Origin: an uncultured Ruminococcus sp.
GTDB taxonomy: Bacteria > Bacillota > Clostridia > Oscillospirales > CAG-272
Direction: 5' to 3'
Assembly (NCBI GenBank): GCA_902778145.1
Contig: CACYWW010000005.1
Coordinates: 65,013-129,012, forward strand
DNA: 64,000 nt
Shown here: piece by piece, positions 13,541-32,870 of the stretch
Layout of the letters: each line of letters starts with the position of its first letter
Position numbering within the stretch: the first letter of the stretch is position 1
Translations under genes and position numbers: made by a program
Notes under the pieces: generated by a model
Told to the model about the DNA's origin: nothing
The model's database searches: none
The model's input: only the letters and a program-made list of their open reading frames with translations

Positions 13541-15940
13541 TCAGGCGCTCTCTTTCCTCTTTTTGCGGCTGAGGACGCCGAGCAGAACGAGTCCGCCGGC
13601 TATGACGACCGCGGCGCCCGCTACTATCAGCGCTGCGAGCGTGCCGTCCGAGCCGGGGTCATCGGGTCCGTCTGTCTCCGGCTGACCGGGCTCCTCGGAT
13701 ATACTGAGCAGACGTGAGCAGATATAGTACTTTTCACCGTTCTCCGCGGTCTGCGGACAGATCACGGCGAAGCTGCCGCTTCCCGTCGCCGCGCCGCCGG
13801 AAACGGTGACGTCTCCGGACGATACCGCGGCGGTACAGAGCGCCGTCACGTCGAGCTTCGTCCCGTCGCAGTATACGAGCATCGCGCTGATCCTGCCGTC
13901 GGCGTCGACCGACGCTTCAAGCGACGACGGAAGCTTTGCGGCGGAACGGAAATCGGAGGTCATATATCCATCGTATCCGGAAAACATCGCCGACTCTCCG
14001 TCGTCCGCAGCGGGATACACGCCGATGCCGTGCATCGAAAGCATACGCGGGAACCTTTCCGGCGGAAGCAGCGTGCATACGGAATTGAAGGACGTCAGCG
14101 TGCGGCAAAGCGAATGAAGCGACGCGTCGGCGTCACGCCCGTCAAAAACGTTCCAGAGGCCTGTGTATACAGCTGCTGCTCCGGCTTCGTTCGCCGCCTT
14201 CACCGCGGCGGCGGAATCAGATAAGATCACGCATCTCTCCGTCATATCATAGGAGCGCGCGATACCGTGAACGGCAGATACAGCGGCCTCATCGGCGACG
14301 TTTATATCGAACACGACGTCCGTATGCTCGCGGCTGAAGGTCTCGAAAAGCTCCTCGAGCGAGGTGATCCTGTCGTCGCGGCTCATGCGGCTGTCTGTGT
14401 ACGTCAGCGTCTGAAGCGAGGCGTACGCGGATTCCCGGATCAGCGGATCCGACGACATGCCAGACACCCTGTCGCCGCCCGAAAGAACGGGGACTCCGTC
14501 CTTCGTCAGCCTGACCGTGACCGCGATCGCGCGGGCGCCGGAATCGGCAGCGGACAGAATGCTTTTCAGCGTGTTCGCAGGCGCCGCCGCGGTGTCGCCT
14601 CCGTCGCAGATAACGACCTGCCGTCTTATGACGGAGCGGTCGGTGATGCCTTCAAAAGCCTCGATAACGTCCTCGGGATCAGGCGTGACGACGGCGTCAG
14701 CGCCGCAGACAGCCGCGTCGAACGCGGGCAGCGCTCCGGTCTGGGCGACGACCCATACCGATATGAAACGCTTGTGCAGCTCGTATACCGTATCGGGATC
14801 AGCCGCGGATGACGAGAGCATGACGGTTCGCAGACCGTTCGAATAAAGCATCCTGTAAGTTTCGGCGACGTCAACGCTGTCACGCGAGGAAAGGTCCATA
14901 ACGCGTCTTATATACCCGTTTTCCGCGAACTGCGCCGCAAAGGAGGAACGGGAAAAGATGACGAACGCGTCGTCGATGGTGTTCTCCCGGCAATACGCGG
15001 ACAAAAGCTCCGCGCTCTGCTGATCCGTGACGTAAAGCGCCGGGAGCGCAAGTCCGCCGAGTCCGGATATCCTCTCTCCGAGAGGTCCGAGATCGGTCGT
15101 CCCGTCGTAGCAGCGAAGCTCATTGCCCGCGGCTTTGACGGTCATCATAACGGCGCCGGGGCGTCTGTCGTCGGCGGTATAGACGCGCCTTCCGCTCCTG
15201 TCGCGTTCTATTATCAGCGGAACGGACGACGCGGCGGTCGCGACGGTGTAAAGCTCCGAGCGGAACGAGCCGCCTCCACCGGCGCTTTTCGGCACGGTCA
15301 TCGTCACTCTGACGTTGTCGACCGTGAACGTCACTCCGCGTCCGTTTACGCCGATGTATCCTTTGGCGCCGTTCACCGCCCTGCACTCGCAGACAAGCTC
15401 TCCGTCGACATATCCGTAAGCCGCGCCGCCCGTTACGGCGACCGCGAGTCTGAATTCCGAATCGTCGGCGAGCTCGCCGGAAACGAGCTTCCCGGGGTCG
15501 GTATGCGCGGCCGCGCTCAGCTCCGTCCACGAGGACGCGCCTCTCTTTTCAAGCATCGAGACGGCGCCCGCGCAGTCCACCGTGAACTGAATCAGATGAT
15601 CCTCGCTGCCGGCGCCGAAGCAGAGCGCGAACCACGAATTCGCAGAAAGGTGCGATTCGAGCTTTATATCACATTCGAAGAAAAACGTATCCGTGTCGGG
15701 AGCGAACGGGAACAGCGCCGTCGTGACCGGAGGATAAGTATCGGACGCCTCCACGACCATCACGCCGTCCTCCGCGTAAATGCTGCCGTCATCACCGAAG
15801 GTGACGTCGGTCCCGCGCGGCAGCTCTCCGTTCCGGAAATCAGCCTCGAACAGGACGGTCCCCTCGCCGGGTTCCGCTTTCACGTACAAGCCAGGCAAAA
15901 GCAAAAGTACGAGCAAAAAACACGAGATTTTCTTAAACAT
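13541..15940 (-). CDS. secreted, C-terminally membrane-anchored multidomain protein (LamG/ConA-like N-domain; GDPD-like segment)
   Basis: Signal peptide MFKKISCFLLVLLLLPG. The C-terminus is TM plus 'SRKKRKE'. The central '..ANTLKSILSAADSGARAIAVTVRLTKDGVPVL' resembles glycerophosphodiester phosphodiesterase folds, but the usual HR pair is not evident. Start chosen at ATG 15940 (RBS AAGGAAAG). Confidence 0.55.
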   Translation of the reverse strand: MFKKISCFLLVLLLLPGLYVKAEPGEGTVLFEADFRNGELPRGTDVTFGDDGSIYAEDGVMVVEASDTYPPVTTALFPFAPDTDTFFFECDIKLESHLSANSWFALCFGAGSEDHLIQFTVDCAGAVSMLEKRGASSWTELSAAAHTDPGKLVSGELADDSEFRLAVAVTGGAAYGYVDGELVCECRAVNGAKGYIGVNGRGVTFTVDNVRVTMTVPKSAGGGGSFRSELYTVATAASSVPLIIERDRSGRRVYTADDRRPGAVMMTVKAAGNELRCYDGTTDLGPLGERISGLGGLALPALYVTDQQSAELLSAYCRENTIDDAFVIFSRSSFAAQFAENGYIRRVMDLSSRDSVDVAETYRMLYSNGLRTVMLSSSAADPDTVYELHKRFISVWVVAQTGALPAFDAAVCGADAVVTPDPEDVIEAFEGITDRSVIRRQVVICDGGDTAAAPANTLKSILSAADSGARAIAVTVRLTKDGVPVLSGGDRVSGMSSDPLIRESAYASLQTLTYTDSRMSRDDRITSLEELFETFSREHTDVVFDINVADEAAVSAVHGIARSYDMTERCVILSDSAAAVKAANEAGAAAVYTGLWNVFDGRDADASLHSLCRTLTSFNSVCTLLPPERFPRMLSMHGIGVYPAADDGESAMFSGYDGYMTSDFRSAAKLPSSLEASVDADGRISAMLVYCDGTKLDVTALCTAAVSSGDVTVSGGAATGSGSFAVICPQTAENGEKYYICSRLLSISEEPGQPETDGPDDPGSDGTLAALIVAGAAVVIAGGLVLLGVLSRKKRKESA

Positions 15941-15989
15941 ACACTTTCCTTTACAAAAATTCAACAAACGGAAAACAACAAACAGCCGG

Positions 15990-18098: not shown

Positions 18099-19997
18099 TT
18101 ATTTTACTTTTTTCTCTTTCTTTTTCCCGGTCTTCGCCAAAACGAATATACCTATGCCGGCAAGCGCGAGCAGCAGTACCGAGATCACGGCGACAAGCGC
18201 GATGACGAGCACGCCGGGGCCGGTCTTGCCGGTCTTTTCGCCCTGTGTTCCGGGGGCTGTGTCTGCCGCGGTGCTCTGATCGACGCTTTGAACCGGTATC
18301 ACCTCAATGATCTCGACCTTCAGCGGTCCGAGCAGCCGGACATCGCTGTCGTGTTTGCCCTCGACGGTGTTTCTTACGGCGCACAGGCAGTAAATCACGC
18401 CGGTCTTGGACGTGTCGGGAGAGAAGGTATTCTTATCGTTGTTTTCGACGTTGGAAATGAAATTGCCTTTTTCGTCGCATAACGCCCACTGATAATGGAT
18501 CGTACCGCCGTCGTTCACTTCCGCGTTGACGGTGATAGCGAAATCTTCGTCCTTGTGTACCGTATAAGAATCCGGAACAAAGCCGAGGATCGTCGGGATC
18601 TCCGCTTTCTGCAGATCCTCTACGGTGAGCAAGGCGTTTCTTGTTCTGAATTCCCAGCCGTCCGGGGACGCGATCCGGCAGTAAAACGCGCATCCGTCAA
18701 GCCCGGGTATCGCTGTCACGGTGAGCGTATCCGTCGTCGCTCCGCTCACGGTTATACCTGAGGCGCTGTCAAGCGGGACGGGTGTACCGCCGTCCGCCGG
18801 GACAAGATACCAGAGATAGCTCGCCGCGTTCTCCGCCTGTACGCTGAACGTCACCTCATCGCCCGCCTTCGCGATCGTGTTGAAGGGCTCCTTCACTATT
18901 TTGACGGGCTTGACGCCGGTGAATATGACCTTGACGTAAGGCTTGTCGTCGATCGAATTGTCGAACTCGAAATCGTCGCTCGTCTTGTTCGTCACAACGC
19001 AGGTGTAGTACTCGATCCTCGGCGTGTCGTTACCGTTGAGAGTGATATTCTTTCCGTTCTCGCCGGGTATTTTTATGTTGATGTCCGCGGGGTTCCCGCC
19101 CTTATACCACTGATACGAAAGCTCGCCCGTGTCCTTCTCCGGGTCGATTCTGACGTTCATGTTTATCGTCACGTCCTCGTCTTCGAAAACGCGGACCTCA
19201 TTCTGATCGAAGCTGATGATCGTCTGCGGGTCGTATACTCTCATATGCGTCACGCCGGTCTCATAGTAGAAATCGGTGATGCCGTATTTGACATATATCT
19301 GACAGTAGAAGGAATGGGGACCGGGCGTGGTCGCGTACGCGTCAGCCATGAGGACGGGGTCGTGCTCGTCGAGCGCAACACCGCTTTCCTTCGTTCCGTC
19401 CGGAGTCTTATACCAGTTGAATTCAATGTCGTCGAACGTATATCCCGAGGCTTCCGGAACGTACGCAGTAGCGGCGAGCTTTACGAGCTTGAAGCGTCTG
19501 ACCGAGAATTCGGCGATCAGCTCCACAGTCAGCTGTTCGGGAGCGTTGACTGACGTGTAGATCGTCGCGGGATCGCAGTTTTTCGCTCCCGCTTTGTTCG
19601 CCACGGTGCAGGTCGCGACCGCGCCGTAGTTGAATTCACGGATATTATCTATTATGAGCTGATGTTTCACTCTGCCGTTTTCAAGCGTTTCCGTCTTGAA
19701 CGTGACCTTCATCTTGCCGGTGCCGTCAAGCGCCTCGAAGCCCTTGACGCCCGCGTCCTTTGAAAAATCGAAGGTGCGGTCCTCTCCGCCCTCGCTTGTC
19801 TGCATGAGCCAGCTGAAGACGAGATCTTTACCCTCAGCCGTAACGCTGAGAACAGCTCTTTTCCCCGTTCTGACGGTACACGTCATGGGTTCATATATAA
19901 GAGTCGGAAGGTCGTCGTCCGAGACGGCGACGGACGACACGGAAAAGCAGGACATGATCATGACTGCCGCCATCAGCAACACGATGATTTTTTTCAT
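18099..19997 (-). CDS. cell-surface protein with repeated Ig-like beta-sandwich modules, C-terminal TM anchor
   Basis: Signal peptide, about 6 repeated ~90-aa modules (recurring '..Y.W(Y/F)...' and 'Y.C.V.N' patterns), then 'VLVIALVAVISVLLLALAGIGIFVLAKTGKKKEKKVK'. Confidence 0.6.
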   Translation of the reverse strand: MKKIIVLLMAAVMIMSCFSVSSVAVSDDDLPTLIYEPMTCTVRTGKRAVLSVTAEGKDLVFSWLMQTSEGGEDRTFDFSKDAGVKGFEALDGTGKMKVTFKTETLENGRVKHQLIIDNIREFNYGAVATCTVANKAGAKNCDPATIYTSVNAPEQLTVELIAEFSVRRFKLVKLAATAYVPEASGYTFDDIEFNWYKTPDGTKESGVALDEHDPVLMADAYATTPGPHSFYCQIYVKYGITDFYYETGVTHMRVYDPQTIISFDQNEVRVFEDEDVTINMNVRIDPEKDTGELSYQWYKGGNPADINIKIPGENGKNITLNGNDTPRIEYYTCVVTNKTSDDFEFDNSIDDKPYVKVIFTGVKPVKIVKEPFNTIAKAGDEVTFSVQAENAASYLWYLVPADGGTPVPLDSASGITVSGATTDTLTVTAIPGLDGCAFYCRIASPDGWEFRTRNALLTVEDLQKAEIPTILGFVPDSYTVHKDEDFAITVNAEVNDGGTIHYQWALCDEKGNFISNVENNDKNTFSPDTSKTGVIYCLCAVRNTVEGKHDSDVRLLGPLKVEIIEVIPVQSVDQSTAADTAPGTQGEKTGKTGPGVLVIALVAVISVLLLALAGIGIFVLAKTGKKKEKKVK

Positions 19998-20686: not shown

Positions 20687-21310
20687 ATGGTTTTGAAGAA
20701 AATTACCGCGATCGTTTTCACGGCGGTCGCGGCGCTGGCTCTCGCGGTCGGCGTATCCGCGGTGGGTCACACGTCCGCGGATCAGGTCTTCGGCGCCGAC
20801 GGCAGGACGGATCTCGCGTCCGTCGGTCAGAACGACGTGACGGGGACCTCTCTCGGCACGATCACGGATGATAAGCTTACGTTATGGGGCTGGTACGCGG
20901 ACGAGCAGAAGATATCGGAATTCGGCTACCGTTACGGTGACAGCGTCACTCTCGGCTCGCCCAAATACACGGGCGGAGCCGACGATGAGACGATAGCGGG
21001 TCAGGCGGGCGCGCTCGGCTACGCTGACGGTGAATCCGTCCGCTTCAGGATAGAGAACATCCCCGTCGTCAAGGGCGACAACGTAGAGCTTTACGCCGTG
21101 GCGAAGCTTGAGAACGGCGAGACCGTGGACATCTGGCGCATCACGTATTCGAGCGCCGGCGGCATCGACATGCCGGGCGGACAGACGTCCCCGGGTGCGC
21201 ATCCCGCGCCCGAAAATCCGCAGACGGCGGACGCGTCCGTCGTCGCGGTGGCGGTCGTCTCCGCGATCTCTCTCGCCTTCACGGCAATCACAAGGAAGAT
21301 CAGGCTGTAA
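20687..21310 (+). CDS. secreted surface-protein paralog 1 (module B; C-terminal NPQTAD-TM-basic tail)
   Basis: Signal peptide. The 'LWGW...EFGYRYGD..LGSPK...ESVRFRIE' module is shared with paralog 4. The C-terminus is 'ENPQTADASVVAVAVVSAISLAFTAITRKIRL'. Confidence 0.8.
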   Translation: MVLKKITAIVFTAVAALALAVGVSAVGHTSADQVFGADGRTDLASVGQNDVTGTSLGTITDDKLTLWGWYADEQKISEFGYRYGDSVTLGSPKYTGGADDETIAGQAGALGYADGESVRFRIENIPVVKGDNVELYAVAKLENGETVDIWRITYSSAGGIDMPGGQTSPGAHPAPENPQTADASVVAVAVVSAISLAFTAITRKIRL

Positions 21311-21315
21311 GCCGG

Positions 21316-21360
21316 GGCGGGAACGCCGGGAGGTCTTTAGACCTTCCGCGTTCCCGTTTT
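21316..21360 (+). terminator. intrinsic terminator after paralog 1
   Basis: Long imperfect hairpin gcgggaacgc...gcgttcccg followed by TTTT. Confidence 0.6.
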
Positions 21361-21413
21361 CCGACAAACGCGCCGTTTTTATCCGGCGGCGGTCATTTTT
21401 TTATCGAACATTA

Positions 21414-21442
21414 TTGACAAACGCGGTTTCATATGATATAAT
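21414..21442 (+). promoter_or_regulatory. promoter of paralog 2
   Basis: TTGACA, 17 nt, TATAAT with TGa extended -10. Confidence 0.6.
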
Positions 21443-21491
21443 GCGGCTAAAGCTAAAGGCTGAATTTCAATATCATAAAAAGGAGAAAGAA

Positions 21492-22613
21492 ATGAAAAAG
21501 ATCATTGCAGTACTGCTTTCAGTCGTAATGGCGGCAGCTATGTTCACTGCGGCAGTAGTCGTCAACGCTGACGACGTGACCGCGAAGGTCGTTATCGGTT
21601 CCGAAGCAAAGACTTCGACTCCGAACGGCAATCAGGTCGAAATGTCCATGAACGGTTCCAACCTCGTCGTCAAGACGAACGAAGGCGCAAACGACCCGTG
21701 GATCTCCATCCCGCTCGACAGCGTCGACACAAGCGTTTACAACGCTTTCACGGTCAAGTTCAAGGCGGACAAAGCCATCAGCACGAACAACACCTACCTT
21801 ATGGATACCGAGAAGAACCCCGGTTATTCCGCAACGGCCGGCACATGGGTACCCAACGGTATGGGCAGCCTGGCGGACGGTCAGTGGCACGAGCTCACTT
21901 ATGAGATCACCAGCTTCTCCGTCATGGTCGGAACGAAGCTTACCGGCGTCCGTCTCACGATGTGCGTTGAAGGCGGCACGTTCGAGCTCGAATCCGTGAC
22001 CTTCTCCAAGGTCACCCCGAAGGATCCCGATCTGTGGCTCTGCAAAGCGGGCAGCCAGAACGTAGCTCCCGGTTACTGGATGAACGATCCGTATGACAGC
22101 ACCAGAAACATAGACATCACCCTCACCTCCACCTCCGCTTTCAACGGTCTTTGCGCGATGATGTACGCGAATAAGCCCGCCGATCCCGAGCCCTGCGTCG
22201 TACACATCTCTCTGAAGGACGGCGACGGCAAAGAGCTTGAAGCTCAGGATTTCCAGGTCTCTCAGGATGACAAAGGCGACGGTGTTTACAGCGTCTACTT
22301 CAAGAATACCCACAACGCGGGCAAGTACACCATCTCCATCACTCCGGGCGGCAAGGGTAAGTATTTCGTACTCGGCGGCTCCGAGAAGGGCGACATTGAC
22401 GTTACCGTGGAAGGCAACTTCGGTACCGCGGATCAGTACATACATGACGCTCCCTGCGCGTTCCTTATAGGCGCGGCTCCCGTCGATGAGACTCCCGCCG
22501 ACGATCCCACTCCCACCGACAACCCCGGTACCGCTGACGCTTCCGTCATCGCTATCGCCGCTGTCGCCTGCATCGCTCTTGCCGGCGTCGTAGTTGCGAA
22601 GAAGGTCAGATAA
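21492..22613 (+). CDS. secreted surface-protein paralog 2 (modules A + C; NPGTAD-TM-KKVR)
   Basis: ATG 21492 (MKKIIAVLL) has AGGAGAAAG upstream; the longer ORF 21108 is an Arg-rich run-in. Module A is shared with paralog 3 and module C with paralog 6. Confidence 0.85.
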   Translation: MKKIIAVLLSVVMAAAMFTAAVVVNADDVTAKVVIGSEAKTSTPNGNQVEMSMNGSNLVVKTNEGANDPWISIPLDSVDTSVYNAFTVKFKADKAISTNNTYLMDTEKNPGYSATAGTWVPNGMGSLADGQWHELTYEITSFSVMVGTKLTGVRLTMCVEGGTFELESVTFSKVTPKDPDLWLCKAGSQNVAPGYWMNDPYDSTRNIDITLTSTSAFNGLCAMMYANKPADPEPCVVHISLKDGDGKELEAQDFQVSQDDKGDGVYSVYFKNTHNAGKYTISITPGGKGKYFVLGGSEKGDIDVTVEGNFGTADQYIHDAPCAFLIGAAPVDETPADDPTPTDNPGTADASVIAIAAVACIALAGVVVAKKVR

Positions 22614-22628
22614 TTCAATTTGAATTTC

Positions 22629-22655
22629 AAAAAACCGCCGTACGGCGGTTTTTTG
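22629..22655 (+). terminator. intrinsic terminator after paralog 2
   Basis: aaaaaCCGCCGtacGGCGGtttttt. Confidence 0.85.
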
Positions 22656-22718
22656 AAGTTTTCCGGCAGTTATATAGTCATTTTTTCAAAAACAAAAGCA
22701 CAAATTTGAAAAACAGTC

Positions 22719-22747
22719 TTGACATTTTTCGGCGATTATGATAGAAT
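22719..22747 (+). promoter_or_regulatory. promoter of paralog 3
   Basis: TTGACA, 17 nt, TAGAAT with TGa extended -10. Confidence 0.6.
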
Positions 22748-22782
22748 AGCATAGCAGGATTAATTTTATCAGGAGGTAAATT

Positions 22783-23436
22783 ATGAAAAAAATTCTTGCT
22801 ATGGCAGTCGTCATCGTTATGATGTTTGCCGTATGTGCCGCTACGGTATCGGCCGAGTCCGATCACATCAACATCGACATTACCGCCGCTACCGGCAGCA
22901 GTGTTGAGCTTACGGTCGCTGACGGCAAAGTAGTCGCAAAGACGAACGGCGGAGACCCGTGGGTATCCATCCCGCTCAACGAAGTTGACACTTCCGTCTA
23001 CACCTACTTCACCATCCTTTACAGAGCCGACAAAGAGATCGGTTCCAACAACACCTATCTTATGGACACTTCCGTTAACCCGGGTTACTCCGGAACGCAG
23101 GGCACGTGGACAGGTCACGGCATGGCGGGTACCGCCGACGGCGAGCTCCATACCAAACAGTACAACATCGCGGACTTCCCGGCGATGGCCGGCACCAAGC
23201 TTACCGGCGTACGTTTCACCGCCTGCGGTGATGTCGACGGTCAGTTCACCATCGAAGGTCTCGTCTTCTCCTCTGTCCCGTACGATCAGATAAGCGGTGA
23301 TGACGAGCCTGCCACTCCCTCCGACAACCCCACTCCCGCCGACAACCCCGGTACCGCTGACGCTTCCGTCATCGCTATCGCCGCTGTCGCCTGCATCGCT
23401 CTTGCCGGCGTAGTCGTTGCGAAGAAAGTCAGATAA
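22783..23436 (+). CDS. secreted surface-protein paralog 3 (module A; NPGTAD-TM-KKVR)
   Basis: MKKILAMAVV signal peptide. 'DPWVSIPLNEVDTSVY..F...YRADKEIGSNNTYLMDT..NPGYS' parallels paralog 2. Confidence 0.85.
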   Translation: MKKILAMAVVIVMMFAVCAATVSAESDHINIDITAATGSSVELTVADGKVVAKTNGGDPWVSIPLNEVDTSVYTYFTILYRADKEIGSNNTYLMDTSVNPGYSGTQGTWTGHGMAGTADGELHTKQYNIADFPAMAGTKLTGVRFTACGDVDGQFTIEGLVFSSVPYDQISGDDEPATPSDNPTPADNPGTADASVIAIAAVACIALAGVVVAKKVR

Positions 23437-23453
23437 TTCAGACTGAATATCAG

Positions 23454-23477
23454 AAAACCGCCGCAAGGCGGTTTTTT
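23454..23477 (+). terminator. intrinsic terminator after paralog 3
   Basis: aaaaCCGCCGcaaGGCGGtttttt. Confidence 0.85.
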
Positions 23478-23527
23478 GATCTCAATTGGTTTTTTATGGC
23501 GACTCAATATTTTTTATTCAAAAAGTA

Positions 23528-23556
23528 TTGACAATCCTGCAAAAACATGATACAAT
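23528..23556 (+). promoter_or_regulatory. promoter of paralog 4
   Basis: TTGACA, 17 nt, TACAAT with TGa extended -10. Confidence 0.6.
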
Positions 23557-23591
23557 ACAACCGGCATGAATAAAAATATAGGAGGTATACC

Positions 23592-24227
23592 ATGAAAAAA
23601 ATTCTTGCTATCGCAGTCGTAGCTCTTATGACTGTGGCTCTCTGCATCAGCGCAAGCGCTCTGCATCACACCTCTCCCGACCAGATCCTGGCAGGTTCTG
23701 ACGGACACGATCTCGCATCTGTCGGCAACAACAACGCAGCAGGCACCGATCTCGGCGCCATCACCGAAGAGAGCTTCTTCTTCTGGGGCTGGCACTCCAC
23801 CGAAGTTGAAGGCGGCATAACCGAATTCGGTTACCGTTACGGCGACGTTACCGTACTCGGTTCTCCGAAATTCTACCATGACAACTCCAACGATGCCGGC
23901 AAACAAGACAACGATACCATCGCTTCTCAGTGCGGCGGCGTAGGCGAATCCGTTCGTTTCAGAATCGAGGTTCCGGTACTTAAGGGCGAACAGGAAGTCG
24001 TTGCTGTCGTTAAGCTTGCTGACGGCACCGTCGAAGACATGTGGACCGTCAAGTACTCCGCCGAAAACGGCAAGACCCTTGAGGATATCACCCCCAAGGC
24101 TGACGATCCCGCTCCCACCGATCCGACTCCTTCCAACCCCGATACCGCTGACGCTTCCGTCATCGCTATCGCGGCTGTCGCCTGCATCGCTCTTGCCGGC
24201 GTAGTCGTCGCGAAGAAAGTCAAATAA
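23592..24227 (+). CDS. secreted surface-protein paralog 4 (module B; NPDTAD-TM-KKVK)
   Basis: MKKILAIAVV signal peptide. Module B is homologous to paralog 1. Confidence 0.85.
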   Translation: MKKILAIAVVALMTVALCISASALHHTSPDQILAGSDGHDLASVGNNNAAGTDLGAITEESFFFWGWHSTEVEGGITEFGYRYGDVTVLGSPKFYHDNSNDAGKQDNDTIASQCGGVGESVRFRIEVPVLKGEQEVVAVVKLADGTVEDMWTVKYSAENGKTLEDITPKADDPAPTDPTPSNPDTADASVIAIAAVACIALAGVVVAKKVK

Positions 24228-24242
24228 TTCATACTGAATTAC

Positions 24243-24270
24243 AAAAAACCGCCGCAAGGCGGTTTTTTGT
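24243..24270 (+). terminator. intrinsic terminator after paralog 4
   Basis: aaaaaaCCGCCGcaaGGCGGtttttt. Confidence 0.85.
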
Positions 24271-24271
24271 C

Positions 24272-24300
24272 TTGACAAAACTCACTCAACATGATATAAT
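24272..24300 (+). promoter_or_regulatory. promoter of paralog 5
   Basis: TTGACA, 17 nt, TATAAT with TGa extended -10. It abuts the preceding terminator. Confidence 0.6.
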
Positions 24301-24332
24301 TGCTCCAGCATGAATAAAATCAGGAGGTAACT

Positions 24333-24956
24333 ATGAAAAAAATTCTTGCTGTTATTCTCGCAGCGGTATTCTCCGCCGCTCTTTGTGTTGCCGCGTCTGC
24401 TCAGTTCAGTCTCGACAGACTCAACATCAACGCCAACACTCTGACCACCATGCCCGACGATCCGATCAAAACCGCGGACGAAGTCAAGATCGCGGTCGGC
24501 GACAAGCTTTATATCCTCGGCTGGGCGATGAACACCGAGACGAATTCCAACCTCAAGGAAGTCGTTTACACAATCGACGGAGCTGAAAAGAAATGCGCCG
24601 ACAACTACAGAGACAGACCCGGTCTTTGCGAATACTTCGGAATGGCCGATAACTCTCTCAACCGTCACGCCGGTTTCGGCACTGACGAAAGCGCCTTAGA
24701 GCTCACCGGTATCGATAAGCTCGGCGACGGCACATACAAGATGGCGATCATCGCAAAGTATGAAGACGGAACGACCGAAGATCTCAAGCCCGAATTCACA
24801 CTCGTCGTCGGTACCGGTGAAAACAAGGCTGAGGATCCCACTCCCGCCGATCCGACTCCTTCCAACCCCGATACCGCTGACGCTTCCGTCATCGCTATCG
24901 CGGCTGTCGCCTGCATAGCTCTCGCCGGCGTAGTCGTTGCGAAGAAAGTCAGATAA
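24333..24956 (+). CDS. secreted surface-protein paralog 5 (divergent B-like module; NPDTAD-TM-KKVR)
   Basis: MKKILAVILA signal peptide, 'LYILGWA....EVVYTIDG', and the same C-terminal 30 aa. Confidence 0.85.
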   Translation: MKKILAVILAAVFSAALCVAASAQFSLDRLNINANTLTTMPDDPIKTADEVKIAVGDKLYILGWAMNTETNSNLKEVVYTIDGAEKKCADNYRDRPGLCEYFGMADNSLNRHAGFGTDESALELTGIDKLGDGTYKMAIIAKYEDGTTEDLKPEFTLVVGTGENKAEDPTPADPTPSNPDTADASVIAIAAVACIALAGVVVAKKVR

Positions 24957-24973
24957 TTCAGACTGAATATCAG

Positions 24974-24997
24974 AAAACCGCCGCAAGGCGGTTTTTT
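24974..24997 (+). terminator. intrinsic terminator after paralog 5
   Basis: aaaaCCGCCGcaaGGCGGtttttt. Confidence 0.85.
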
Positions 24998-25030
24998 CAA
25001 CTTGCAGACAAAGTTTTTATTCTTTATTCT

Positions 25031-25127
25031 ACTCCTTCCGTCACGACTGAACGTCGTGACACGCAAAACAAGGCTCCTCCCTTGGGGGAGCTGTCATCCG
25101 GGAAGCTTCCCGGATGACTGAGGGAGT
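25031..25127. other. orphan multi-hairpin segment (three hairpins closed by a 5-bp outer helix), function unknown
   Basis: Hairpins are gtcacgac/gtcgtgac (25040-25060), gctcc..ggagc (25073-25091) and a perfect 26-bp palindrome gtcatccgggaagcttcccggatgac (25093-25118). The outer pairing is actcc (25031-35) with ggagt (25123-27). Confidence 0.4.
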
Positions 25128-25142
25128 TTGTCTTCACTCTGA

Positions 25143-25167
25143 GAAAACCGCCGCAAGGCGGTTTTTT
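25143..25167 (+). terminator. extra copy of the family terminator with no gene in front
   Basis: aaaaCCGCCGcaaGGCGGtttttt, identical to those after paralogs 3-6. Confidence 0.7.
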
Positions 25168-25309
25168 GATCAAACGCGCAATGATATACGAAGCGGACGC
25201 CGAAACGGCTCTCTCCCGGCTCTCGCTCAACACCGGTCATTTTCGGTCCGTATCCCGGGAAACACACCGGTTTTGAATAAATAAAAAGCTCAAAAAAATA
25301 AAAAAACTA

Positions 25310-25338
25310 TTGACAATATACAACAACTGTGCTAAAAT
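25310..25338 (+). promoter_or_regulatory. promoter of paralog 6
   Basis: TTGACA, 17 nt, TAAAAT with TGc extended -10. Confidence 0.55.
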
Positions 25339-25378
25339 AAATCAGCATGAATTATACAATATATACAGGAGGTATAAC

Positions 25379-26506
25379 ATGAAGAAAATTCTTGCTATTG
25401 CGATAGCGGTCGTTATGACTGTCGCTCTGTTCGCTGTCACGTCGACAGCTGCTGACGCGAAGTGCCTCATCACGGCTGAACAGCTTTCCGCTGAGACCAA
25501 CACAACGAAAAGCGGCGTAAGCTTTGAGCTCAAGGAAGAAGGCGGAGAGAAATTCGCCAGATTCACAGCCGTGGACCTCGATCCGCACCTTTATCTCTCG
25601 CCCGACGTCACGACGGACGTTGCCAATCACTTCGCGGTCATAAAATACAGAACGACCTCCGAAGCCGCTACGATCGACGCTTATATGGCAGGCGCAGAGC
25701 CGCACACGGTATTCACGAATATCGAAAACGACGGCAACTGGCATATGTGCTACGGCGATCTTGAGCAGTCCGGCGCTAACTGGACCGGCAAGTTCAGCCG
25801 TCTTGACCCGCTGAACAACGGCAGCCTCAAGGAAGGCGACACGATCGACATCGCCTGGATCGCTCTGTTCGCATCCGAGGATGACGCGAAAGCCTACACC
25901 GGCCCCGCTGCCGGCGAGACTCCCGTCGCTCCCGAACCCGAGAAATCCGCAGACCAGTGGCTCGGCGGCAGCGAACCTGCCGGTCACTCTACCGGTTGGT
26001 GGATGAACCCCATCGCCGAGGGCTGCGACAAATACATCAAAATAGGCTTCACGGCTGCCGGCAACTTCAGCGGCATCCACGGCTACTACCTCTGCAACCC
26101 GACCACGTCCAACGAAGGTCCGACCGTAGTTAAGGCTCAGATCCTCAAGGGCGACACCGTTCTTGCGGAAAAAGAGATCCCCGTAGACGGCGACGCCTGG
26201 TACGACACCGATTTCGGCAAGACCATCCCCGCCGGCGACTACACGCTCTCCTTCCTGCCCGTTTCCGGTAACGGCGGCTGGTTCGTTCTCGGTTCTTATG
26301 ACGGCCAGGGCGATTGGACGATAGACACCAACTGCGCGACAAACGACGCCACCAAGACTCATCCCGAGATCATGCTCATCGGCGCCGCTGCTGCAGCCGA
26401 TCCTCAGCCCTCCAACCCCGGTACCGCTGACGCTTCCGTTATAGCCATCGCGGCTGTAGCCTGCGTAGCTCTCGCCGGCGTTGTAGTCGCAAAGAAGATC
26501 AGATAA
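25379..26506 (+). CDS. secreted surface-protein paralog 6 (A-like + C modules; NPGTAD-TM-KKIR)
   Basis: ATG 25379 (MKKILAIAIA) with AGGAGGT upstream. Module C ('GWWMNP', 'FVLGS', 'LIGAAA') parallels paralog 2. Confidence 0.85.
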   Translation: MKKILAIAIAVVMTVALFAVTSTAADAKCLITAEQLSAETNTTKSGVSFELKEEGGEKFARFTAVDLDPHLYLSPDVTTDVANHFAVIKYRTTSEAATIDAYMAGAEPHTVFTNIENDGNWHMCYGDLEQSGANWTGKFSRLDPLNNGSLKEGDTIDIAWIALFASEDDAKAYTGPAAGETPVAPEPEKSADQWLGGSEPAGHSTGWWMNPIAEGCDKYIKIGFTAAGNFSGIHGYYLCNPTTSNEGPTVVKAQILKGDTVLAEKEIPVDGDAWYDTDFGKTIPAGDYTLSFLPVSGNGGWFVLGSYDGQGDWTIDTNCATNDATKTHPEIMLIGAAAAADPQPSNPGTADASVIAIAAVACVALAGVVVAKKIR

Positions 26507-26520
26507 GCTGACTTAATATC

Positions 26521-26546
26521 AAAAAACCGCCGCAAGGCGGTTTTTT
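26521..26546 (+). terminator. intrinsic terminator after paralog 6
   Basis: aaaaaaCCGCCGcaaGGCGGtttttt. Confidence 0.85.
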
Positions 26547-26647: not shown

Positions 26648-28351
26648 ATGGATCTGACATTTTCAAAAAACACAGTACACGTTTTTTCCGCGTGGTTCGG
26701 AAGGAATTCAAACGTACAGAGCTTTGTCGCGGAAGAAAAAAGAAGACCTCCTTACCCGTGCCGCACACCGGACGCTCTTCCCGCGGCCGATCCCGAGGAG
26801 GTCGGTATCGAAAGCGGCAGGATAATGAAGTTTTACAAACGTCTTGCCCGCGAGGATTCGATAAAGATGCAGACCGTGATCATAGCCCGGAACGGGCACG
26901 TCATATCACGCGCTCATTTTTATCCGTACTCGACCGATATCTGGCACGTCTCTCACTCCCTCGCAAAATCGCTGACCGGGCTCGCGGTCGGTCTGTTGTT
27001 TGACGACGGGCTGATCTCGCCTGACGACAAGCTGCTCGACTTTTTCAAGGACGCGCCGCCCGCCGCGAGGATCAATCACAAAAACACGACAATCCACCAC
27101 CTTCTGACGATGCAGACCGGCGTGTTCTTCAACGAAGCCGGCGCCGTCACCGATACAGACTGGGTGCGCGCTTATCTTGAATCCGGCGTGAAATTCCGTC
27201 CGGGAACTCAGTTCGAATACAACAGCATGAACACGTATATCCTCTCCGCTATCGTAAAGAGGATATCCGGAAAAGGTACCCTGCAGCTTTTGAGGGAGCG
27301 TATTTTCGAGCCGCTCGGTATCCGTGACATATTCTGGGAAAAATGTCCGCGCGGCATCGAAAAAGGCGGCTGGGGCATCTATTACTACCCCGACGACATT
27401 CTGAAGATCGGTCAGCTTTACCTGAATGGCGGAGTATGGGAGGGCAAGCGCCTGCTCTCGGAAAAATGGATAAAAGAATCGACGAAGAAGCAGATCGACA
27501 CCCCGGATGAGACCGGTATCTACGGTTACGGCTATCAGGTCTGGTGCAAGGAGGACAGGAGCACGTTCCTGTTCAACGGGATGTTCGGTCAGAACCTGAT
27601 CGTCTTTCCGAGGACGAACATCATGATAGCGACGACGGCGGGCATAGACGAGACGTTCCAGAACAGCGCGCTTTACTCGATCGTCGAGGAATATTTCGGC
27701 ACGCCGTACCGTCCGCGCGCGGGGCTGGCAAAGGATCCCGCGGCGCTTGCGGCGCTTAGGGCGCTCGAGCCGTCTCTTGTGATGCACAACAGCGACGCGT
27801 ACAAATACGGCGGCTCCTCTTCCCTTCCCGCGCTTGACGGCGTTTACGAGATACAGGGGAACGACGGCTTCGGTCTTTCGATCCTGCCGGAGCTATATCA
27901 AGCGGTCCACAACAACTTTGCGGAAGGGCTGAAGCGGGTCACTCTCAGCGTGAACGGCGGTGAGGGCGAGCTCACGACGCTCGAGGGTGAGACCGCGCAC
28001 ACGGTAAAATTCGGCATCGGTCACGAGGTCCCCGGCTGTATCGAATACGGCGGCGAATCCATACTGACGTCCGCGCGCGCGTATGACGCGGGCGGCGGGA
28101 AAATGAAGATAACGATCACGTTCCCGGAGCTGCCGAATATCAGATATATAACGCTTGAAAAGACGGAGGACGGCGTTTCCGCAAAGTGGGAGGAGGCGCC
28201 CGGATACGACTTTTTATATAAAATGATGGACAGATCGTTTCTCGGAAAGCTGATGCTCGGCGACAAAAAGAAGGCGGTCGACGCCGATTTCATCACTCGC
28301 CGCGTCAAATATTTCCTGCAGCCGACTGTCAAAATGAAGAAAGTACGGTAA
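26648..28351 (+). CDS. serine hydrolase, beta-lactamase-fold family with C-terminal extension
   Basis: 'SHSLAKSLTG' SxxK motif, 'YNSMNTY' (YxN-like), and a ~200-aa C-terminal domain. Confidence 0.75.
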   Translation: MDLTFSKNTVHVFSAWFGRNSNVQSFVAEEKRRPPYPCRTPDALPAADPEEVGIESGRIMKFYKRLAREDSIKMQTVIIARNGHVISRAHFYPYSTDIWHVSHSLAKSLTGLAVGLLFDDGLISPDDKLLDFFKDAPPAARINHKNTTIHHLLTMQTGVFFNEAGAVTDTDWVRAYLESGVKFRPGTQFEYNSMNTYILSAIVKRISGKGTLQLLRERIFEPLGIRDIFWEKCPRGIEKGGWGIYYYPDDILKIGQLYLNGGVWEGKRLLSEKWIKESTKKQIDTPDETGIYGYGYQVWCKEDRSTFLFNGMFGQNLIVFPRTNIMIATTAGIDETFQNSALYSIVEEYFGTPYRPRAGLAKDPAALAALRALEPSLVMHNSDAYKYGGSSSLPALDGVYEIQGNDGFGLSILPELYQAVHNNFAEGLKRVTLSVNGGEGELTTLEGETAHTVKFGIGHEVPGCIEYGGESILTSARAYDAGGGKMKITITFPELPNIRYITLEKTEDGVSAKWEEAPGYDFLYKMMDRSFLGKLMLGDKKKAVDADFITRRVKYFLQPTVKMKKVR

Positions 28352-28358
28352 TATTTAT

Positions 28359-29642
28359 TTGCAATACGAAAGCCACAAAATAAAAGACGGCGTTGAGCTT
28401 TGCGTCATCGTCGACAAAAAATTCAAAACAAACACGGTAAGCATTACCTATATCGGAGACACGGGCTCTCGCGCGGCGTCCGATTACGCGCTGCTCTCCG
28501 GCGTTCTGTCGCGCAGCTGCCGGGCTTATCCGAGTCTTAAACAGCTGAATATCGCGCTTGACGGATTATACGACGCGCAGCTGTCGGCGGACACGTCACG
28601 CTGCGGACTTTCCCAGCTCGTAACGTTTTCGATCCGCTCGCTCGACAACAGATATTCGATAGACGGCACCGACATCACGTCAGGCGCCCTTGACGTTCTT
28701 TACAGCATCCTGTTCGATCCGGATGTGAACGGGGAAAGCTTTTCCGCAGAGGTGTTTCAAAGCGAGCGCGAGCAGCTGAAGGATGCGATAAACGGGATAA
28801 GAAACATGCGTCAAAGCTACGCGGTGATGCAGTGCACAAAGGAGCTTATGCGGCGCGAGCCGCGCTTCTCACCGCGTCTCGGCACGGTCGCGGACGCTGA
28901 CTCCGCAACGCCCGCGGAAATTTACGAGGTATACAAAAACATACTTTCCGCGTGTCCCGTGAGGATATGCGCGGTATTGTCCGACGGCGCAGACCGCGTA
29001 AAAGAATTCGCCTGCAAGGTCGCGGAAAGGATAGGAGAACTCAAAAACGGCAACGCCGTAACGCCGGACTTCTCCGCGCCGCCGAAGAGGCTTCGCAGGA
29101 TAACCGAGGATGCTCCGATCAAGCAGGACGTCATATGCGTCGGCTGTGATCTCGACTGTGACGAGAGCGACGGCAAGGAAGCCGAAAGAGCGCTGTTCAA
29201 CGAGATATTCTTCCAGAATCCGACGTCGCGGCTGTTTGAAAACGTGCGCGAAAAGCTTTCTCTGTGTTACTACGTTTCCGCGTCTCCAATGACGGATCTG
29301 AAGAAATACGTGATCTACGCGGGTGTTGACGGAAAAAACGCGAAAAAAGCGGAGAGCGAGATACGTTCGCAGCTCGAGCTGATGAAGCGCGGAGTAAGCG
29401 CGGAAGAGCTTAAAAGATGCAGACTGACGCTTAAAAACGATCTTCTGTCGATAAAGGACTCGCCGTCGCGGCTGTCGAGATGGTATCTGATAAGAGCCTT
29501 ACGAGGTCTTCCCGCGGAGTCCGTCGACGAATATATTTCAAGGCTTGACCGCGTTACGGCGGATGACGCGGCGCGCGCCGCCTTCTCCGTTCTGCCGGAT
29601 ATGGTATACCACCTGAAGGGAGGCGCCGCAAATGAAATATGA
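28359..29642 (+). CDS. M16-family peptidase-like protein lacking the HxxEH zinc motif (non-catalytic partner)
   Basis: Pitrilysin-like length and pattern but no HxxEH. It overlaps the next M16 gene by 11 nt. The start is uncertain (TTG in the ORF track). Confidence 0.65.
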   Translation: MQYESHKIKDGVELCVIVDKKFKTNTVSITYIGDTGSRAASDYALLSGVLSRSCRAYPSLKQLNIALDGLYDAQLSADTSRCGLSQLVTFSIRSLDNRYSIDGTDITSGALDVLYSILFDPDVNGESFSAEVFQSEREQLKDAINGIRNMRQSYAVMQCTKELMRREPRFSPRLGTVADADSATPAEIYEVYKNILSACPVRICAVLSDGADRVKEFACKVAERIGELKNGNAVTPDFSAPPKRLRRITEDAPIKQDVICVGCDLDCDESDGKEAERALFNEIFFQNPTSRLFENVREKLSLCYYVSASPMTDLKKYVIYAGVDGKNAKKAESEIRSQLELMKRGVSAEELKRCRLTLKNDLLSIKDSPSRLSRWYLIRALRGLPAESVDEYISRLDRVTADDAARAAFSVLPDMVYHLKGGAANEI

Positions 29643-30921
29643 ACTGACCCGGCACGTACACGAGCCGTCCGGCGAAAGCTACGTCTCCTTCCGCCACAAA
29701 AGCGGCGTAAAGGTGCTCGTTTCACCGAACGGATACACGTCCGCGTGCGCCGTCTATTCCTCTGATTTCGGCGGCGCCGATATGCGCTTCTCGGTCGACG
29801 GCAAAGTCGTCGAAACGCCTGCCGGCGTGGCGCATTTTCTCGAACACAAGCTGTTTGAGACAGAGGACGGAGGCGACGCGTTCCGCCTGTTTTCCGAACT
29901 CGGAGCCGATTCAAACGCCTTCACGTCACATACGTCGACTTCGTTTACGTTCAGCTCGCCCATGGACGTGTTCTACGAATCGCTTTCGATACTGCTCCAT
30001 TTCGTCCACACGCCGCATTTCAGCCGTGAATCGGTAGAGCGCGAGCGCGGGATCATAGCCGAGGAGCTGAACATGTACGAGGACGACCCGGACAGCCGCT
30101 CCTTCAACGAGCTGATGAAGTGCATGTACCGCAAAAACGGCGTCAGATACGACGTCGGCGGCACGGTCGAGTCGATCGGCAGGATCACACCCGAGCTTTT
30201 GTACTTATGCCATACGGCGTTTTACCGTCCGGAAAACATGACGCTCGTCATAGCGGGCGACGCCGATCCGGAAAGGATCGCCGGGATCATGGACGAGCAG
30301 ATACCGGAGGGCAGATACCCGTCGGTCATAAAGCTTCCGCCGAAGGAGCCTGAAAAGGTCTGCCGCAGACTGAGCCGGATACAAATGGATATATCCGAGC
30401 CTCTGTTCTCGTTCGGTATTAAGGATTCTCCGTCGTCCGATCCCGCCGGTATGAGGCGGCGCGGCGCGGCGCTGTCCATACTTTGCAGTATGCTTTTCGG
30501 CGCAAGCTCCGCGTTTTACTGCGACTGCTATGAAAAAGGCCTTATTTCGGGTGACACAAACGCCTATTACAACTACGGCGGCGACACCGCATATCTGACG
30601 GTCACGGGCGAAAGCAGACACCCGTTCACCGTCAAAAAAAGAATAATCAAGGTCATCGAGGACGCACTGAAAAACGGCGTTGACGAATCGGAATTCGAGC
30701 GGACGAAAAAAGTGTTCTATGCAAATTTCATCTATTCGCTGCAAAGCAGCAGCTCCGTCGCCTATTCTCTGCTTTCGTTTGAGCTGCTTCACGACGATAT
30801 GCTCGCTTATCCCGATCTCTTATCGTCGCTTGACTGCGCCTCGGCGCTCGGATATCTCAGATCTCTGTACAGCAAGGACCGCTGCGCGTTCACCGTAGCG
30901 GAACAATATAAGGAGGAATAA
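29632..30921 (+). CDS. M16-family zinc peptidase (insulinase/pitrilysin type)
   Basis: 'GVAHFLEHKLF' contains the inverted zinc motif HxxEH, and a downstream 'E' region 'RERGIIAEELNMYED' is present. Confidence 0.8.
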   Translation: MKYELTRHVHEPSGESYVSFRHKSGVKVLVSPNGYTSACAVYSSDFGGADMRFSVDGKVVETPAGVAHFLEHKLFETEDGGDAFRLFSELGADSNAFTSHTSTSFTFSSPMDVFYESLSILLHFVHTPHFSRESVERERGIIAEELNMYEDDPDSRSFNELMKCMYRKNGVRYDVGGTVESIGRITPELLYLCHTAFYRPENMTLVIAGDADPERIAGIMDEQIPEGRYPSVIKLPPKEPEKVCRRLSRIQMDISEPLFSFGIKDSPSSDPAGMRRRGAALSILCSMLFGASSAFYCDCYEKGLISGDTNAYYNYGGDTAYLTVTGESRHPFTVKKRIIKVIEDALKNGVDESEFERTKKVFYANFIYSLQSSSSVAYSLLSFELLHDDMLAYPDLLSSLDCASALGYLRSLYSKDRCAFTVAEQYKEE

Positions 30922-30922
30922 A

Positions 30923-32038: not shown

Positions 32039-32870
32039 CGGAAAAGCGATCTCCGGACAGATCCGAGAGGAAATAAAAGAGAAAGTCACCGGCTTTATAT
32101 CGAAGTACGGCAAAGCGCCGTCTCTGACGGTCATCATCGTCGGCGAGGATCCCGCGTCGCAGGTCTACGTCAGAAACAAGGCGCGCGCGTGTGAGCAGGT
32201 CGGGATAAGATCCGAGGTAATAAGGCTTCCGGAAGATACGGATGAATCGTCTCTCGTTTCGCTGATAGAAAAGCTGAACGGCGAAAGCGGCGTGAACGGA
32301 ATACTCGTGCAGCTGCCGCTCCCGCGCGGGATCGACGAGAAAAAGATCATACTGGCGATCGACCCGAAAAAGGACGTGGACGCGTTCTGTTACGAAAACG
32401 TCGGCAGGATACTGACGGGAGATTACGATCTTCTTCCCTGCACGCCCGCCGGCGTGATGGAGCTTCTGAGGCGCTCCGGTATAGAAGTTTGCGGAAAGGA
32501 CTGCGTAGTTGTCGGCAGGAGCAATATCGTCGGCAAGCCGATGGCGGCGCTTCTGATGCACAAAAACGGCACGGTCACCGTCTGCCACTCGAAGACCGCG
32601 GATCTCGCCTCACATACAAGGAGAGCGGACATAATCGTCGCGGCGGTCGGCAAGCCCGGTTTTATCACGGCGGATATGATAAAGGAAGGCGCGGTTCTGA
32701 TAGACGTCGGCATCAACCGCACGGCGGACGGGAAGCTGAAGGGCGATATTGACTTCGACGGCTGCTTTGAAAAGGCGGCGGCGATCACCCCGGTACCCGG
32801 CGGAGTCGGCCCGATGACGGTCACGATGCTGCTTCAGAACACTCTGAAGGCGGCTGAAAAGCAGATTTAA
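32022..32870 (+). CDS. folD: bifunctional methylenetetrahydrofolate dehydrogenase/methenyl-THF cyclohydrolase
   Basis: 'IIDGKAI', 'VGEDPASQVYVRNK', 'GILVQLPLP', 'VVVGRSNIVGKP' and 'PVPGGVGPMT' motifs. Confidence 0.95.
   Translation: MAMIIDGKAISGQIREEIKEKVTGFISKYGKAPSLTVIIVGEDPASQVYVRNKARACEQVGIRSEVIRLPEDTDESSLVSLIEKLNGESGVNGILVQLPLPRGIDEKKIILAIDPKKDVDAFCYENVGRILTGDYDLLPCTPAGVMELLRRSGIEVCGKDCVVVGRSNIVGKPMAALLMHKNGTVTVCHSKTADLASHTRRADIIVAAVGKPGFITADMIKEGAVLIDVGINRTADGKLKGDIDFDGCFEKAAAITPVPGGVGPMTVTMLLQNTLKAAEKQI

Follow-up and report, generated by a model that had tools for sequence, protein, structure and literature searches.

A 64,000-nucleotide stretch of the genome of an uncultured Ruminococcus sp. 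(contig CACYWW010000005.1, positions 65,013 to 129,012; hereafter the window) encodes six tandem secreted proteins that end in the same tripartite tail: an Asn-Pro-x-Thr-Ala-Asp (NPxTAD) motif, a hydrophobic segment and a short basic end. We consider these tails to be probable sortase-type C-terminal cell-wall sorting signals that depend on a sortase, class B being the likeliest class of the enzyme. The signal is not categorically new: a curated model exists for a ruminococcal NPXTG sorting domain, of which the tail is a variant with Ala or Ser at the position following the threonine (P1'), one not captured by that model.

Six tandem genes with a common C-terminal tail

A six-frame regular-expression scan of the long open reading frames (ORFs) of the window gave exactly six NP.TAD matches, which start at positions 21215, 22521, 23344, 24135, 24864 and 26414 and are each followed by a stop codon 24-25 residues further on. 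The six genes are arranged in tandem on the plus strand and span positions 20687-26506 (aa, amino acids; TM, transmembrane segment; Ig, immunoglobulin):

20687..21310, plus strand: paralog 1, 207 aa; signal peptide, Ig-like beta-sandwich domain, linker, NPQTADAS-TM-RKIRL; tail 21215-21310
21492..22613, plus strand: paralog 2, 373 aa; signal peptide, two passenger domains, linker, NPGTADAS-TM-KKVR; tail 22521-22613
22783..23436, plus strand: paralog 3, 217 aa; NPGTADAS...KKVR; tail 23344-23436
23592..24227, plus strand: paralog 4, 211 aa; NPDTADAS...KKVK; tail 24135-24227
24333..24956, plus strand: paralog 5, 207 aa; NPDTADAS...KKVR; tail 24864-24956
25379..26506, plus strand: paralog 6, 375 aa counted from the MKKIL start; NPGTADAS...KKIR; tail 26414-26506

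The shared order of elements is a signal peptide, a beta-sandwich passenger, a linker rich in Pro, Thr and Asp, the motif NP[QGD]TADAS, approximately 20 hydrophobic residues and a basic tail. The N-terminus of all six proteins is a typical MKKI..A signal peptide. The hydropathy profile of paralog 4 has one hydrophobic segment at the N-terminus and one at the C-terminus, and its AlphaFold2 model (pLDDT 78.8) contains an Ig-like beta-sandwich and a C-terminal helix at residues 189-210. The fifth residue of the motif is Ala in all six window tails. Translation of positions 22521-22613 yields NPGTADASVIAIAAVACIALAGVVVAKKVR followed by the stop codon, and the complete paralog 2 protein is an exact match to P0270 in the representative library; neither paralog 2 nor paralog 4 has an exact entry in the contig index. 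Paralog 1 is 48% identical to paralog 4 and ends with NPQTADASVVAVAVVSAISLAFTAITRKIRL, the same C-terminal sequence as had been given for it in the first-pass annotation of this DNA. That annotation had also placed tripartite tails at these coordinates, each behind a linker rich in Pro, Thr and Asp; the translation and the six-frame scan bear out the tails, and the linker is seen in all six proteins.

Paralogs 2-6 have tails with a DNA identity of about 90% or more, the 3' untranslated region and the terminator included. The DNA and the hydrophobic segment of paralog 1 have diverged from the other tails, NPQTADASV being still kept. The identity of the tails of paralogs 2-6, together with the Cys of their AVAC segment, results from recent duplication or gene conversion, and hence they do not constitute five independent observations; independent support for the signal is provided by paralog 1 and by homologues elsewhere. 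Each of paralogs 2-6 is followed by its own CCGCCG/CGGCGG terminator with a T-run, and paralog 1 by a different hairpin, so that each paralog forms its own transcription unit. Tail and terminator were copied as one block. The terminators of paralogs 2-6 are the following:

22629..22654, plus strand: intrinsic-terminator hairpin after paralog 2, AAAAAACCGCCG-N-CGGCGGTTTTTT
23454-23477, plus strand: near-identical terminator copy
24243-24268, plus strand: near-identical terminator copy
24974-24997, plus strand: near-identical terminator copy
26521-26546, plus strand: near-identical terminator copy

An orphan copy of the terminator (AAAACCGCCGCAAGGCGGTTTTTT) is located at positions 25144-25167. 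No ORF precedes it in the 420-bp spacer that separates paralogs 5 and 6, and it may be the remnant of a lost paralog.

Two other secreted proteins on the minus strand (13541-15967 and 18099-19997) have a C-terminal TM segment and a basic tail and lack NPxT[A/S/G]D, as the first-pass annotation had noticed. One of them has 808 aa with a GDPD domain, and the other has 632 aa with several Ig-like domains and the sequence ..EKTGKTGPG.. ahead of its tail. Both anchoring styles, with and without the motif, are therefore present within 13 kb.

The tail family and curated sorting signals

The curated NCBIfam model NF033846 (Rumino_NPXTG, 'NPXTG-anchored protein') matches the window tail in register: residues 10-37 of a 39-aa query fall on model positions 1-28 of 30, beginning at Asn. 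The tail of the type found in paralogs 2-6 scores 11.6 bits, below the cut-off of 23.5 bits, and the tail of paralog 1 has no match to this model. Substitution of Gly for Ala in silico raises the score from 11.6 to 20.9 bits (+9.3); the window tail stays below the cut-off mainly because Ala stands for Gly. Natural sibling tails with Gly do pass, namely NPRTGD (P0108) with 29.1 bits and NPTTGD (P0079) with 29.9 bits. The reading given in the first-pass annotation, a tripartite signal like those of sortase substrates in which Thr is followed by a non-canonical residue and then by a conserved Asp, is supported; the implied novelty was overstated, as the tail is in register with NF033846 and NPxTGD siblings pass its cut-off. 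The scan with sorting-signal hidden Markov models (HMMs) proposed there had a divided outcome, with the siblings above the NF033846 cut-off and the window tails themselves below it.

Other sorting-signal models match less well or not at all. NF058571 (GVDTG_CTERM) gives the window tail 16.1 bits, mostly over the hydrophobic part, against a cut-off of 29. No match of the window tails was reported for TIGR01167 (LPXTG_anchor, cut-off 15.9 bits), the threshold of which is passed by two NPxTAD relatives, P0029 with 17.0 and P0040 with 16.0 bits. TIGR03063 (srtB_target, cut-off 18.15 bits) has no match in the window tails and gives 10.4-14.0 bits, under the cut-off, on relatives. The exosortase, rhombosortase, archaeosortase and Firmicu-CTERM models did not match the window tails at E-values up to 10, and single relatives have sub-threshold scores with MYXO-CTERM (13 bits, cut-off 20) and Loki-CTERM (12.7 bits, cut-off 19.9). 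The window proteins have the generic layout of sortase substrates, that is, a motif, a hydrophobic stretch and a positively charged tail combined with an N-terminal signal peptide.

Homologues were collected by passenger and by tail. A full-length search with paralog 4 yielded 172 proteins, nearly all from rumen 'Clostridia bacterium' metagenome-assembled genomes (MAGs) and metagenomes; this set was chosen by the passenger and hence is unbiased for the tail. The commonest C-terminus in it is NPxTAD, and others are NPxTSD, NPxTGD, NPGSGD, PAPTSD, PSPTGD, TPRTAD, PPATAD and SPKTAD. Among these homologues the linker is variable and the TM segment can diverge (P0029, P0038, P0049), whereas Asp is invariant, Thr is kept in at least 90% and NPx is mostly retained. 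A word-indexed search with the 40-aa tail alone found only two candidates. A profile of 40 tails run against 1.84 billion representatives clustered at 50% identity found 165 proteins at E <= 0.001, and the core among these cluster representatives is N-P-x-T-[A/S/G]-D; by a simple motif pattern, the newly found matches comprise 44 TAD, 28 TSD, 13 TGD and 7 SGD tails.

In a total of 224 distinct tails, Asn is present in 79%, Pro in 94% and Thr in 93% (otherwise Ser), followed by Ala in 143, Gly in 41 or Ser in 40 tails and then by Asp; the T, [A/S/G] and D columns of this set are fixed by the selection pattern. With the same limit on the T and D columns, the information content of the N, P, T and D columns is 3.2-4.3 bits versus approximately 0.8 bits per column in the linker. 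The Cys of the AVAC segment, regarded as conserved in the first-pass annotation, does not define the family: 131 of the 224 distinct tails have it, and in most of the others Val or Ala stands in its place. The family consensus is N-P-x-T-[A/S/G]-D, a hydrophobic segment and KK[VI][KR]. P1' residues are mixed within single loci, Ala with Ser in L005 and L016 and Ala with Gly in L115, where P0108 (NPRTGD) is found on one contig among four tandem paralogs ending in NPNTAD, NPKTAD, NPKTAD and NPTTAD. Such mixing fits one enzyme that tolerates small P1' residues.

Two groups of relatives deviate from the consensus. In the paralog 4 orthologues P0022-P0027 the usual tail is replaced by an acidic linker of greater length and another TM segment (..GDGWIIFLTICVV..KKRKS). 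Asn-Pro is absent from them, and a [T/K/S]-G-D triplet is retained where the helix begins; their tail may be a decayed or alternative signal. Tails in L014 (1925-2035), L015 (10001-10105), L008 and L010 either have no Pro (..TPAAQTSDVAVAGFAVIATLALAGVVVAKKVR) or carry NPQTSD[L/M]AVAG. The Pro-less variants have lost N-P and retain T-S-D and ..ALAGVVVAKK, which suggests from sequence comparison that T-[A/S/G]-D could be the minimal conserved core.

A scan of species representatives from GTDB with a narrower tail alignment (A4) detected 17 loci, all in MAGs from rumen or gut. The names under which these MAGs were deposited are uncultured Ruminococcus sp. (RUG10767, RUG11869, RUG12975, RUG14256), Clostridiales or Clostridia bacteria (Tb.RUG.108, Tb.RUG.165 and four RGIG genomes), Oscillospiraceae SIG566 and, for one MAG, Lachnospiraceae. 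RUG10767 is closest to the window, with 88-95% nucleotide identity across the paralog region. No ruminococcal record carrying the tail was found in the plasmid collection.

The window tails share with NF033846 the 30-residue layout at the extreme C-terminus (N-P-x-T with a small residue behind it, then a hydrophobic segment that leads to a basic end) and the taxonomic neighbourhood, that is, rumen MAGs deposited as 'uncultured Ruminococcus sp.'; they differ in the residue after Thr, which is Ala (Ser in relatives) and not Gly. Signals with other residues at this position are real sortase signals in other bacteria, such as LPXTA/LPNTA (Streptococcus pyogenes SrtA and a Bacillus class D sortase) and LPQTxE in Lactobacillus plantarum. 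They resemble the window tails in having a small residue other than Gly after Thr, and LPQTxE also has a conserved acidic residue two positions past Thr; they differ by Leu-Pro in place of Asn-Pro, other taxa, other sortase classes and the lack of a conserved ALAG segment. LPxTA has been given as an alternative motif in the literature (PMC8286594). Named class B substrates are Bacillus anthracis IsdC (NPKTGDE), Staphylococcus aureus IsdC (NPQTN) and Clostridioides difficile proteins with [S/P]PxTG, and the B. anthracis enzyme requires an acidic residue at P2' (PMC11987632). The window tails agree with class B substrates in Asn-Pro at P5-P4, Thr at P1 and an acidic P2', and differ in having Ala at P1' where those substrates have Gly or Asn, in a cargo other than haem-uptake proteins and in the lack of an adjacent sortase gene. 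In the searched literature we found no description of the NPxT[A/S]D form.

Candidate processing enzymes and alternative explanations

The window does not encode a recognizable sortase, in agreement with the first-pass annotation: no TLxTC signature was found in any of its long ORFs, and an HMM built from 38 class B sortases gave nothing in it, with a best E-value of 0.045. The regular expression was run over the window, L001-L022 and L115-L117, and the HMM over the window and L001-L022. A sortase of this class was found next to a similar tail in L017 (Oscillospiraceae SIG566), where a 166-aa secreted protein with the C-terminus SPQTGDNTVVVLSSVMMLALAGVVVAKKQLAK is followed by a class B sortase and then by a LytR-CpsA-Psr (LCP) transferase:

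9611-12495 of L017: module of small substrate, class B sortase and LCP

The L017 sortase scores 146 bits with TIGR03064 (equivalog cut-off 153.75) and 56.5 with Pfam Sortase (cut-off 26.6) and has a TLSTC active site; the L017 tail and the window tails have the 11-mer LALAGVVVAKK in common. The same module was found in seven loci (L017, L023, L026, L030, L113, L114 and L118) on rumen and gut Oscillospiraceae-type contigs. Its substrates are secreted proteins of approximately 160-180 aa with [S/A]PxTGD...ALAG/ALCG..VAKKQLAK, and NF033846 is their best sorting-signal model (15.6-22.7 bits). In the six loci other than L017 the tails read [S/A]P[Q/E/K]TGD and the sortases are 56-72% identical. The small substrates have no convincing homologue among the tail-profile matches. 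In 80 further metagenome loci, neighbours of class B sortases end in [S/T]PxTG[D/E/V...]; clostridial class B sortases thus adjoin xPxTG[D/E/..] substrates in 87 loci. The P2' Asp of DNPKTGDE is needed for full activity of B. anthracis SrtB (PMC11987632), in agreement with the invariant Asp of the present tails. Taken together, these findings point to a class B sortase, with its gene in another part of the genome, as the likeliest processing enzyme.

We propose the following route for the window proteins. As their N-terminal signal peptides indicate, they would be exported by the Sec system and, judging from the sequence and the modelled helix, held in the membrane by the hydrophobic segment and the basic tail, NPxTAD being exposed on the outer side. 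A sortase of the membrane, most likely of class B and encoded in another part of the genome, would then cut between Thr and Ala and pass the Thr carboxyl to an amine of the peptidoglycan precursor. By analogy with the SrtB substrate NPKTGDE of B. anthracis, the P2' Asp could be a recognition element.

The genes downstream of the cluster offer another set of candidates. In the window they occupy the following region:

26648-32870, plus strand: PF00144 hydrolase (beta-lactamase fold), M16 peptidase, M16 peptidase, lgt, folD

The cluster adjoins the same genes in L001/L002, L005, L013, L016, L019 and L115. The conserved order continues through rplU, Prp and rpmA and is kept across species with only 66-78% nucleotide identity. 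The PF00144 protein has neither a signal peptide nor a TM segment, and the M16 proteins have no convincing ones, although one of the two shows a single borderline hydrophobic stretch in its interior; these enzymes are therefore unlikely to act on a motif outside the membrane. We rejected them as tail processors, since they are predicted to be cytoplasmic and their adjacency is synteny only. A link to the downstream genes had already been called speculative in the first-pass annotation, and co-occurrence in syntenic loci is indeed all that connects them.

Several features of this neighbourhood were noted in passing. On the other flank, related contigs have a CotH/LTD protein, a VTC-domain protein, DUF4956 and a PBP5-type carboxypeptidase, none of which is at that place in the window. 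The Lgt protein of the window has a C-terminal extension of approximately 50 aa (31890-32038, plus strand) that is acidic, repetitive (AEAEAKAKAEAEAEAEAETETETKTETEAEPEAEAEEETKPEAEK) and unusual for Lgt. A 274-aa ORF at 36820-37644 (minus strand) has no Pfam match and a GC content at third codon positions of 0.32, versus approximately 0.65-0.75 in surrounding genes, and may have been horizontally acquired.

A number of observations weigh against sortase-dependent anchoring. No sortase was found in the window or in about 20 loci carrying NPxT[A/S]D proteins, and none could be assigned to an NPxTAD-carrying genome by accession proximity or contig prefix: the sortase accessions are not close to MBQ7700720, MBO4423505 or MBR6920906 in GenBank protein numbering, and none of the contig prefixes of the sortases (CBDSTN01, ERZ1767638, JAZRES01) is that of a MAG in which these tails are known. 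In all sortase-adjacent substrates, from the 7 modules and the 80 metagenome loci, P1' is Gly, and in none is it Ala or Ser. The window tails stay below the curated cut-off of every sorting-signal model. The ALAG sequence is present in at least 91% of tails, in a set gathered with the tail profile and so biased toward similar TM segments, and this is unusually conserved for a segment to be discarded. The main rival explanation, which we regard as unlikely, is that the tails are uncleaved C-terminal membrane anchors and that NPxTAD is a juxtamembrane element (a helix cap or spacer) or a sortase signal that decayed after a change of Gly to Ala. It would account for the lack of a sortase near any NPxT[A/S]D gene and for the strong conservation of the TM segment, with ALAG and often Cys, as would be more usual in a functional helix that is kept than in a signal that is cut off; the plain TM tail without NP in P0022-P0027 makes TM anchoring alone viable for this passenger, and in a 2026 survey a C-terminal TM helix is given as the anchor of several scaffoldins from ruminococci (PMC13463774). 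It does not explain why the N, P, T and D columns lie far above the linker in information content (T, [A/S/G] and D being fixed by selection), or why T and D are kept even where the TM segment diverges. A decaying signal would drift, yet P1' is Ala, Ser or Gly in 224 of 224 tails, these being the only residues that the selection allowed, and G-type tails that pass NF033846 stand beside A-type tails in one cluster.

Processing by a sortase of class A, D, E or F in place of class B has a smaller chance still. Ala after Thr is known from the LPXTA/LPNTA signals of class A and D enzymes, the scores of some relatives exceed the cut-off of the generic LPXTG_anchor model, and a class B sortase has never been seen beside an Ala- or Ser-type tail; on the other side, Asn-Pro at P5-P4 and the required P2' Asp are hallmarks of class B (PMC11987632), and in this clade only class B sortases adjoin NF033846-like tails. 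A new sorting system with a non-sortase enzyme, either the adjacent beta-lactamase-fold protein and M16 pair or an intramembrane protease that reads T[A/S/G]D and the ALAG helix, is highly improbable. The unusually conserved TM segment and the position of the cluster beside PF00144, M16, M16 and lgt, which the window shares with six loci from diverged species, would favour it, but the PF00144 and M16 proteins, as predicted cytoplasmic proteins, cannot reach an extracytoplasmic motif, the synteny extends to the housekeeping genes lgt, folD, rplU and rpmA, and tail genes at other positions (L007-L012, L014, L015, L020-L022, L117) do not have the PF00144 and M16 neighbours. The lack of exosortase-, rhombosortase- and Firmicu-CTERM-type matches at the E-value limit of 10 also speaks against such a system.

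Surface cargo and its significance

The window tails carry small Ig-like beta-sandwich modules as their cargo, and relatives of these modules are found in cohesin scaffoldins. A Foldseek search of the PDB with the passenger of paralog 4 returned generic E-set/Ig-like matches only, which do not point to a specific function. The relation was revealed by P0328, an internal module of which is 50% identical to the passenger of paralog 3 (E = 1e-32) and the modules of which show weak repeated similarity to paralog 5. Pfam Cohesin is above threshold in 8 of 10 large tail-bearing proteins scanned. The proteins P0328 (L117, 2197-5886), P0340, P0385, P0349, P0370, P0371, P0364 and P0318, of 504-1229 aa and metagenomic origin, have Cohesin domains and the C-terminus NPxT[A/S]D-TM-GKKALKK, and thereby have the appearance of scaffoldins anchored through this tail.

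The presence of the signal on cohesin scaffoldins in related rumen bacteria indicates that it is probably a cell-wall attachment device of a cellulosome-type surface system. In the window, a 630-aa secreted protein (58140-60032, minus strand) combines SH3_3 repeats with a type I dockerin at its C-terminus (PF00404, 42.8 bits), which points to a cohesin-dockerin system of the cellulosome type in this organism; the genes seen in the window do not include one for a cohesin. Other products encoded there are SpoIIGA and a sporulation sigma factor.

The tail-bearing proteins are similar to ScaE of Ruminococcus flavefaciens and R. champanellensis and to Sca2 of R. bromii, which are cohesin-bearing surface proteins with a C-terminal anchoring signal. 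The attachment of ruminococcal anchoring scaffoldins (ScaE) is covalent and made by sortase (PMC4081043, PMC11557425). ScaE and Sca2 are both described as wall-attached by sortase, and it is through their sortase signal that the cell wall holds the cellulosome or amylosome (PMC4081043, PMC4611034, PMC11557425). The published signals of ScaE and Sca2 differ from the window tails in being of LPXTG type or simply named sortase motifs. The TM-helix assignments made for scaffoldins in the 2026 survey are of the kind that an unrecognised sorting motif would be expected to produce.

As the window tails score below the NF033846 cut-off, annotation by that cut-off leaves the proteins unnamed, and their named database homologues carry only 'hypothetical protein'. 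Curated models and LPXTG/NPXTG regular expressions miss these tails, with the consequence that the proteins, among them cohesin scaffoldins of uncultured rumen fibre degraders, end up as hypothetical or simple TM-anchored proteins. A simple remedy would be to broaden NF033846 or to add a sibling model. The natural series of Ala, Ser and Gly at P1' with an invariant P2' Asp should be useful for studies of class B sortase specificity and for the engineering of sortase-mediated ligation.

A bolder proposal, which we consider improbable, is that N-P-x-T-[A/S]-D with the ..ALAG.. helix constitutes a functionally distinct signal with a dedicated enzyme, either an altered-S1' subfamily of class B sortases matched to a non-glycine wall acceptor or a non-sortase enzyme, and that it is the main route of scaffoldin fastening in uncultured rumen Clostridia. 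If this were true, scaffoldins scored as 'TM-helix anchored' in cellulosome surveys would in fact be covalently anchored to the wall. For the sortase-type signal that we favour, recognition of N-P-x-T-[A/S/G]-D as a sorting motif would alter the mode of cellulosome attachment inferred for these genomes.

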